A stretch of 64,000 nucleotides of DNA from the NCBI RefSeq assembly GCF_054482525.1, contig NZ_CM137006.1; one strand, 5' to 3'. The position numbers and the translations under genes are program-made. The notes below the pieces were generated by a model. It did no database searches and was not told the origin of the DNA. It saw nothing but the letters and a program-made list of their open reading frames with translations. Shown in pieces: positions 33,787 through 34,567 of the stretch. How positions within the stretch are numbered: position 1 is the stretch's first letter; every line of letters begins with the position of its first letter.

Positions 33787-34289
33787 AACCTGTTCCTTAT
33801 TCTGTGAACTTCAGGTGACATTAAAGCTTTACTCCTAATGGAGAATCGACGCAATCCCAACTCAGTCAAACAGGTAAATATTAGTCTGATTATTAGTAAA
33901 TACAATTAATCAATCACTCTTGGTGATCATATGATTTCAACTGTAATTATAAGAAAACAATATACTGATTCCCCATATTAAACAAGTGGTTAATATATGT
34001 AAAACATTTTATTAACATTAAGTTGATTGTTGCCTTTCTTTGTATTTAATTAGTTTGTTGTGCGGTAAGTGTCTGTTAAAAAATAGCTTATCTGGTATTG
34101 CATTAAAGCAATTATTTATAGCAGATGATTATTTACGGTGAGTTATTTTAACTGTGCGCAACATCCCATTTCGATTATTCCTGTTTCATTTTTGCTTGCT
34201 AGCGTCGCGAAAAAACTTTTTAACAGATTGAAATACACCCAAAACAAAAGTATGACTTATACATTTATGTTAAGTAATTGAGCGTTTTG

Positions 34290-34305
34290 TGTGATCTGTA
34301 TCACA
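34290..34305. promoter_or_regulatory. CRP binding site in flhDC regulatory region
   Basis: TGTGAtctgtaTCACA perfect half-site palindrome ~275 nt upstream of flhD start. Confidence 0.7.
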
Positions 34306-34567
34306 CATTATTGAAAATCGCAGCCCCCCTCCGTTGTATGTGCGTGTAGTGACGAGTAAAGTTGCGTCGATTTAGGAAAAATCTTAGATAAGTGTAAAGA
34401 ACCCCTTCTATTTGTAAGGACTTATTAAATCCCAAAAAGGGGCTCTGCCTATTGCAGCTTATCGCAACTATTCTAATGCTAATTATTTTTTACCGGGGCT
34501 TCCCGGCGACATCACGGGGTGCGGTGAGACCGCATAAAAATAAAGTTGGTTATTCTGGGTGGGAATA

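Follow-up and report, generated by a model that had tools for sequence, protein, structure and literature searches.

What is the normal state of the DNA in front of flhDC, the class I flagellar operon of Escherichia coli, and does the presence or absence of an insertion sequence (IS) there set a strain apart? The question is raised by a stretch of 64,000 nucleotides (NCBI RefSeq assembly GCF_054482525.1, contig NZ_CM137006.1; hereafter the window), in which flhD is preceded by uspC, a universal stress protein gene that is transcribed in the opposite direction. In the original prediction, which was made from the letters of the window, the DNA between these two genes (33787..34567) was described as long, AT-rich and intact, free of the IS1 of K-12 and hence ancestral in configuration, and provided with a perfect site for the cAMP receptor protein (CRP). 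Here we describe the anatomy of this region, the absence of IS elements from it, its conservation across species and its frequency in E. coli populations. With high confidence, we regard 33787..34567 as the native, IS-free control region of the flhDC operon in a wild E. coli. As such, it represents the well-known wild-type state of a heavily studied locus, the biology of which is already known.

An uninterrupted region between uspC and flhD

The bounds of the region are exact. The gene uspC, a 142-amino-acid open reading frame (ORF) on the minus strand (33358..33786), has a start codon ending at 33786, and the ATG of flhD (plus strand, 34568..34918) stands at 34568. Between them lie 781 uninterrupted bp with a GC content of 34.7%, compared with 50.2% for the whole window; the distal 503 bp have 30.4% and the proximal 278 bp 42.4%. 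Both the positions and the description given earlier were therefore correct. The place of the region, between divergent uspC and flhD, is that of the native flhDC control region. Positions 33700..34650 match the chromosome of E. coli PCN033, a swine extraintestinal pathogenic E. coli (ExPEC) strain, with 100% identity; the same genes, uspC included, are annotated there. Swimming, swarming and electron-microscopy assays of the parental PCN033 strain are reported to show motility and flagella (PMC12292395), and therefore the native IS-free region does not block motility in the PCN033 background.

Several lines of evidence exclude an IS element from these positions. Alignment with the IS-free K-12 strain BW25113 (779 bp against 781 bp) is collinear, with 35 substitutions and two 1-bp indels amounting to 37 differences (4.7%), and no insertion longer than 1 bp is present. 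A search of 33700..34650 gave no repeat, direct or inverted, of at least 12 bp, none of the three small ORFs of the intergenic region has a Pfam match above threshold, to a transposase or otherwise, and an Rfam scan of the whole window gave no match inside 33787..34567. The MG1655 reference carries IS1H (insA5/insB5, 768 bp) between flhD and uspC, flanked by a duplication of the 8-bp site CATTTATG; in the alignment of the window, BW25113 and MG1655, this site falls at 34262..34269 (-107..-100 relative to the flhD transcription start) and is present here as a single copy. Directly beside it, the TTAA that forms the hot-spot target of IS5 (34270..34273) is likewise intact and single, while the junctions in W3110 read TTAA-IS5-TTAA; the W3110 element maps to this tetranucleotide, in agreement with the published position of -99..-96 (PMC5100188). 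In the alignments with MG1655 and W3110, the targets of IS1H and IS5 are thus both unoccupied in the window. By the repeat search, the Pfam search and the single-copy targets, the region is without IS terminal repeats, target-site duplication or transposase remnants. The claim that 33787..34567 holds no IS is accordingly borne out, and the inverted repeats and transposase fragments that might have betrayed one were looked for there and not found.

The comparison with K-12 requires some refinement. That K-12 has IS1 at this place is true of MG1655 and not of K-12 at large: BW25113 is insertion-free and W3110 carries IS5. The promoter-proximal sequence of MG1655 (IS1H at -107..-100) and of W3110, RP437 and MC1000 (IS5 at the -99..-96 TTAA) is the same as that of the window, but these alleles have a 768-bp IS1 or a 1,195-bp IS5 about 20–30 bp upstream of the CRP site, where the window has none. 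In such alleles, the element comes to lie between the promoter and the distal AT-rich DNA and increases flhDC expression (PMC5100188, PMC9478672). The effect attributed to upstream insertions in the original prediction is in fact well documented, since flhDC expression and motility both rise when IS1 or IS5 inserts between -96 and -476 (PMC5100188, PMC11237407, PMC9478672). No insertion was found in the window, which therefore falls outside this IS-activated class (IS at about -96 to -476). For annotation, it follows that the lack of insAB here is no deletion. Three lineage-specific departures stand at otherwise well-conserved positions. At 34078 the window has A where K-12 and 96% of species have T, at 34210 it has an additional A that 96% of species lack, and at 34405, within the leader, it has C where about 90% have T.

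The frequency of the IS-free state was assessed in 5,426 complete E. coli genomes. With a 951-bp query, the uspC-flhD region was detected in 5,422 of them; the search joins aligned pieces up to about 975 bp apart for a query of this length and would bridge an IS1, and therefore it was repeated with two 461-bp queries. The promoter-proximal query was at least 80% covered in one piece in 5,254 genomes and was split into two places in 155, and the corresponding figures for the distal query were 5,370 and 51. The IS-free flhDC region is thus the norm of E. coli, found in at least about 96% of the genomes, and interrupted or deleted regions make up at most about 4%, many of them in laboratory derivatives of K-12.

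Individual isolates illustrate the interrupted state. IS1 lies upstream of flhD in the pig isolate EC19 and in the human isolate HS-01, at the same point as the MG1655 IS1H in the latter, and in the human-gut isolate EC06 IS1 sits beside a deletion of flhDC and neighbouring genes; the genes that come after uspC there are an LprI-family gene, yecV and argS. IS30 in the uspC-flhD region is a marker of naturalized wastewater E. coli and is absent from 845 animal and human isolates; the uspC-IS30-flhDC arrangement involves the same intergenic region as a polymorphic marker, with IS30 there and none in the window (PMC5007776).

The same arrangement extends well beyond E. coli. When one genome of each species was scanned for FlhD, 80 loci were obtained from the Enterobacteriaceae, and UspC is encoded divergently upstream of flhD in 74 of these, with a spacer of 776–807 bp in 65 of the 74 (770–810 bp in 66). 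Therefore, on this comparative evidence, the long uninterrupted region is older than the genus Escherichia and its IS-free state is ancestral, as had been proposed. One could instead suppose that the region formerly bore an IS that was later excised or deleted, leaving a revertant or scar. IS entry is certainly recurrent, as the 155 proximally and 51 distally split genomes testify, and IS-carrying cultures are reported to be mixed and able to lose the element (PMC11237407). Yet neither a duplicated target nor any repeat of 12 bp or more is present, the IS1 and IS5 targets are both single-copy, the length of 781 bp lies inside the narrow family-wide distribution, and a traceless precise excision is needless when about 96% of genomes are IS-free. 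A past insertion thus appears extremely improbable.

Nothing was found to contradict the reading of the region as the native flhDC control region, but three limits apply to it. Owing to the piece-joining rule of the search, insertions below about 730 bp escape the counts of interrupted genomes. In addition, there are 37 differences from K-12, three of them at well-conserved positions (34078, 34210 and 34405), and therefore the quantitative behaviour of the region may differ from that in K-12. Finally, the transcription start, the binding of CRP and the binding of repressors would be as in K-12, from which they are carried over by homology.

The CRP site and the flhD promoter

The predicted CRP site TGTGATCTGTATCACA occupies 34290..34305. 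There are two matches to TGTGA-N6-TCACA in the 64 kb of the window, where shuffles lead one to expect 0.03, and none of 100 shuffles contained two or more; the site noticed earlier at these positions is real by this measure. Against the full 22-bp consensus AAATGTGATCTAGATCACATTT, 15 of 22 positions match, the differences lying in the flanks and the spacer. Exact 35-mer word searches of the same E. coli genomes distinguished three alleles: that of the window, in 271 genomes; that of K-12, TGTGATCTGCATCACG, in 413; and the majority allele, TGTGATCTGCATCACA, in 4,479. A perfect core is thus present in 4,479 + 271 of 5,426 genomes, or about 87%. Both half-sites are also perfect in about 74 of the 79 species loci with enough upstream sequence, where the site lies 275–301 bp before the flhD ATG and its spacer is freely variable. 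Fixed half-sites with a free spacer are the mark expected of selection for CRP binding.

The window differs from the K-12 16-mer at 34299 (T instead of C) and at 34305 (A instead of G), and the right half-site of K-12 (BW25113, MG1655) consequently reads TCACG. The A equivalent to 34305 is invariant in the 25 other species aligned. Since this base is carried by the majority of E. coli and is invariant across species, the G of K-12, and with it TCACG, is on the aligned sequences a derived and atypical state, and the K-12 half-site is probably the weaker one. The core is indeed perfect, but perfection is the norm of the species and the family and no peculiarity of this strain. The suggestion that the core arose as a strain-specific up-mutation, which renders the catabolite-dependent expression of flhDC unusually strong and thereby takes the place of an IS, draws on the fact that A at 34305 restores TCACA relative to K-12 and that 34299 differs as well, on the restriction of the exact window allele to 271 of 5,426 genomes, and on the motility of PCN033 without an IS (PMC12292395). 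We consider it very unlikely, because A at 34305 is carried by 4,479 + 271 genomes against 413 with the K-12 G, because the invariance of A in the 25 other aligned species and in about 74 of the 79 scanned makes K-12 the derived form, and because the sole lineage-specific base of the site, T at 34299, falls in the freely varying spacer. The MG1655 and W3110 references are therefore atypical at this locus on two counts, by their IS insertions and by the degenerate K-12 CRP half-site.

A sigma-70 promoter for flhD is predicted on the plus strand at 34334..34362, with a -35 element TTGTAT (34334..34339), a 17-bp spacer and a -10 element TAAAGT (34357..34362). The annotation of the antisense RNA AsflhD in MG1655 ends at 1978395, which is -198 from the flhD ATG and which we take to be the known flhD start; therefore the homologous G at 34369 (plus strand) was assumed as +1, corresponding to the K-12 start 198 nt before the ATG. 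On this assumption, the -35 element occupies -35..-30, the -10 element -12..-7, the IS5 TTAA -99..-96 and the IS1H target -107..-100, and the centre of the CRP site lies at -71.5. The geometry is self-consistent, as the TTAA then takes its reported position of -99..-96 (PMC5100188). The -35 element fits the consensus at only three of six positions, and for this reason the promoter was not called by a simple promoter/terminator scan, which returned two minus-strand calls against 3.4 expected by chance. Such a weak -35 fits dependence on an activator.

Conservation supports these assignments. In an alignment of 26 sequences reaching from the CRP site to the ATG, the -35 region TTGTATGT is conserved across genera, as is the -10 region GAGTAnAG, with a variable third hexamer base (A in the window, C in BW25113), and TTGCGTCGAaTTAGGAAAAATCTTAG, running from the start to +26, is conserved or nearly so. 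In comparison with K-12 and 24 other species, the promoter hexamers, start context and leader blocks are either the same or conserved. The spacing from the -35 element to the block beginning at +5 is 39–40 bp, and that from the CRP site to the -35 element 43–45 bp, in 68 species.

Class I CRP promoters, such as lac P1, have a CRP site with its centre close to -61.5, -71.5 or -82.5, on the same helical face as the promoter. The site of the window, with its perfect core, its conserved half-sites and unconserved spacer, and its centre at -71.5 (with the start placed by homology), has the properties of this class, and the weak -35 and the constant 43–45 bp spacing are consistent with it as well. 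Soutourina et al. are said to have published the same position of -71.5 in 1999; the value given here was derived from our own geometry together with secondary sources. Activation of flhDC by CRP is also stated in the secondary literature (PMC9478672).

By homology with K-12, the region would function as follows. Transcription would start at 34369 from the weak sigma-70 promoter TTGTAT-17-TAAAGT, activated by cAMP-CRP bound at 34290..34305 in the class I position, and repressing inputs, which in K-12 include H-NS, LrhA, OmpR and RcsAB, would be borne by the roughly 500 bp of AT-rich upstream DNA and by the beginning of the leader. The 199-nt leader would in turn be targeted by CsrA, small RNAs and the antisense RNA AsflhD. 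For the exact positions of the CsrA, RcsAB, LrhA, OmpR and H-NS sites, we draw on secondary sources and general background. With its upstream DNA unbroken by an IS, flhDC would be expected to stand under full native control here, and to be partly derepressed by the insertions in MG1655 and W3110. The motility of the strain is accordingly expected to be natively regulated, that is, catabolite-dependent and subject to H-NS, LrhA, Rcs, OmpR, CsrA and small RNAs.

The closest known counterpart is the IS-free, 'poorly motile' configuration of BW25113, which shares with the window the flanking genes, the order of elements, the hexamer positions, the start context, the RcsAB/CsrA block and the leader hairpins. 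It differs in its TCACG right half-site, where the window has the TCACA that is invariant in the aligned species, and in the mid-leader, where the window shows a cluster of substitutions and a 1-nt insertion. K-12 promoter coordinates can be carried over to the window, with an offset of +1 in the leader.

The only other perfect TGTGA-N6-TCACA of the window, TGTGATTTGCATCACA, is located at 25481..25496, in the interval that separates the divergent gene yecR from the small-protein gene azuC (25579..25665), and precedes azuC by 83–98 bp. It probably serves the azuC promoter as its CRP site; azuC is presumably catabolite-controlled.

The distal AT-rich segment and its length

Upstream of the CRP site lies the distal AT-rich segment (33787..34289), 503 bp of 30.4% GC, which corresponds to the zone of activating IS insertions in K-12 and is conserved in length and only poorly in sequence. 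In 72 of 74 species of Enterobacteriaceae, 495–506 bp separate the uspC start codon from the CRP site (mean 502.4, SD 2.7), while a 144-bp mid-leader segment in the same genomes varies in length with an SD of 7.8. Within Escherichia, the few distal indels of 1–2 bp largely offset one another. In contrast, the identity of the distal segment to that of the window in global alignments outside Escherichia is 0.60–0.66, against 0.58–0.64 for shuffled sequence; the majority base is found in fewer than 60% of sequences at 305 of the 503 positions, and the 45 positions conserved to 90% or more are gathered in about a dozen short islands. The spacer between flhC and motA is also tight (118–128 bp in 75 of 76 species), but, being short and functional, it makes a weak control for length.

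A conserved length despite a turned-over sequence suggests selection on spacing or contour length. We tentatively propose, as a possibility that is far from established, that the distal ~500 bp serve as an architectural spacer under a constraint on length, and not as an assembly of fixed sequence motifs. If this were so, repression of flhDC would need a nucleoprotein structure of fixed contour length, for example an H-NS-type bridge or loop from uspC-proximal DNA to the flhD promoter or leader, and such a structure would explain why IS insertions derepress the operon almost anywhere from -96 to -476. No statement of a strict distal length was found in the literature searched; a spacing of ~502 bp, if confirmed, would offer a simple testable handle on upstream silencing of flhDC.

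The AA/TT helical periodicity of the distal segment peaks at 10.4–10.7 bp in the cross-species mean spectrum (z of 11–14 against shuffles, for sequences that are related to one another); the window's own segment, compared with the remainder of the 64 kb, comes 918th of 1,270. Consensus scans of the intergenic region returned one H-NS site (2.0 expected), three Fur sites (2.7 expected) and none for IHF or Fis. OmpR-like half-site pairs numbered 14 against 7.25 expected, but four mismatches were allowed in AT-rich DNA and the excess is not taken as evidence. Of the further regulator sites anticipated in the original prediction, the H-NS and Fur candidates are thus at chance level, and only an RcsAB-like box at 34373..34386, in the leader, is credible, because it lies in an invariant block; no conclusion is drawn from the scans of the distal DNA.

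These results bear on a further possibility, in which the AT-rich distal ~500 bp are mere neutral filler and function is confined to the ~280 bp between the CRP site and the ATG. Distal alignments at the level of shuffled sequence, a majority base below 60% at 305 of 503 positions and chance-level scans for H-NS, Fur, IHF and Fis are all what neutral filler would give. It would hardly keep its length within 495–506 bp in 72 of 74 species (SD 2.7, against 7.8 for the mid-leader) or retain about a dozen islands at least 90% conserved, nor does it accord with the activation of flhDC in K-12 by IS insertions anywhere from -96 to -476 (PMC5100188). We therefore hold neutrality to be unlikely.

The best-conserved distal block, about TGATTATTAGTAAATACAATTAAT, covers ~26 bp at 33885..33910, which is 99–124 bp before the uspC ATG, and its majority-base conservation is 75–90% or more in 73 sequences. 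It is possibly a uspC promoter or regulator site. A 47-amino-acid ORF at 34138..34281 was considered as a gene and rejected for want of conservation, the 1-bp indel at 34210 putting it out of frame in K-12 and 96% of species; Pfam gave no significant match to it. The two halves of 33740..34580 also have different affinities: 271 genomes, O104:H4 strains among them, match the proximal 461 bp at 99% identity or more, a number equal to that of the genomes with the window CRP allele, and only four do so for the distal 461 bp. This mosaic pattern suggests recombination inside the uspC-flhD region.

The flhDC leader and neighbouring features

The flhDC 5' leader (34369..34567, plus strand), a predicted target of post-transcriptional control, measures 199 nt, compared with 198 nt in K-12, because of a 1-nt insertion. 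Its first 33 nt and last ~85 nt are kept across genera, and its middle varies in sequence and length. Close to the start, TAAGATTTTTCCTA on the minus strand (34373..34386, +5..+18) resembles an RcsAB box, with 12 of 14 consensus matches, and is presumably that box. It overlaps the first GGA motif (34375..34377, plus strand), which lies close to the RNA's 5' end and is a candidate CsrA site; the surrounding block, TTAGGAAAAATCTTAG, is nearly invariant across genera. CsrA is reported to bind two sites close to the flhDC mRNA's 5' end and to shield it from RNase E (PMC7652899). A second GGA motif (GUAAGGAC) at 34418..34420 (+50..+52, plus strand) is the probable second CsrA site; it is kept in E. 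coli, reads GGG in two of three more distant Escherichia, and is not kept in other genera. Yakhnin et al. reportedly made the assignment of the second site in 2013. A mid-leader hairpin around this motif (CCCCUU/AAGGGG here and CCAUUU/AGGUGG in K-12) pairs in three E. coli haplotypes; it was dropped as a candidate, the segment being unconserved in other Escherichia species or genera.

Two further stem-loops were predicted by RNAalifold in the conserved 3' part of the leader. In stem-loop 1 (CCGGG-GCUU-CCCGG, 34493..34506, plus strand), 97% of cells pair and two pairs change on both sides; in stem-loop 2 (GUGCGGU-GAG-ACCGCAU, 34519..34535, plus strand), 94% of cells pair and an inner U-A pair is replaced by C-G in six sequences, a compensatory change. 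Taken jointly, 95% of cells pair, against 32–53% when one strand is slid by 1–3 columns, and three pairs show two-sided changes. As most positions never vary, these data lend modest support to the stem-loops as real RNA structures. No Rfam family covers either of them.

An antisense RNA, AsflhD, has also been described for this locus (bioRxiv 10.1101/2021.05.11.443715). Its homologous region, mapped from MG1655 b4839, would occupy 34369..34589 on the minus strand, a length of ~220 nt, and be complementary to the leader.

The surrounding genes, as read from the ORFs and the PCN033 annotation, follow the order otsB-otsA (plus), uspC (minus), flhD-flhC (plus) and motAB, with flhC (plus strand) at 34921..35499 downstream of flhD. 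Elsewhere in the window, Rfam matches comprise the MicL small RNA (368 bits, 53285..53592), C0465 RNA (91 bits, minus strand, 39949..40026) and three tRNA genes (21421..21720).

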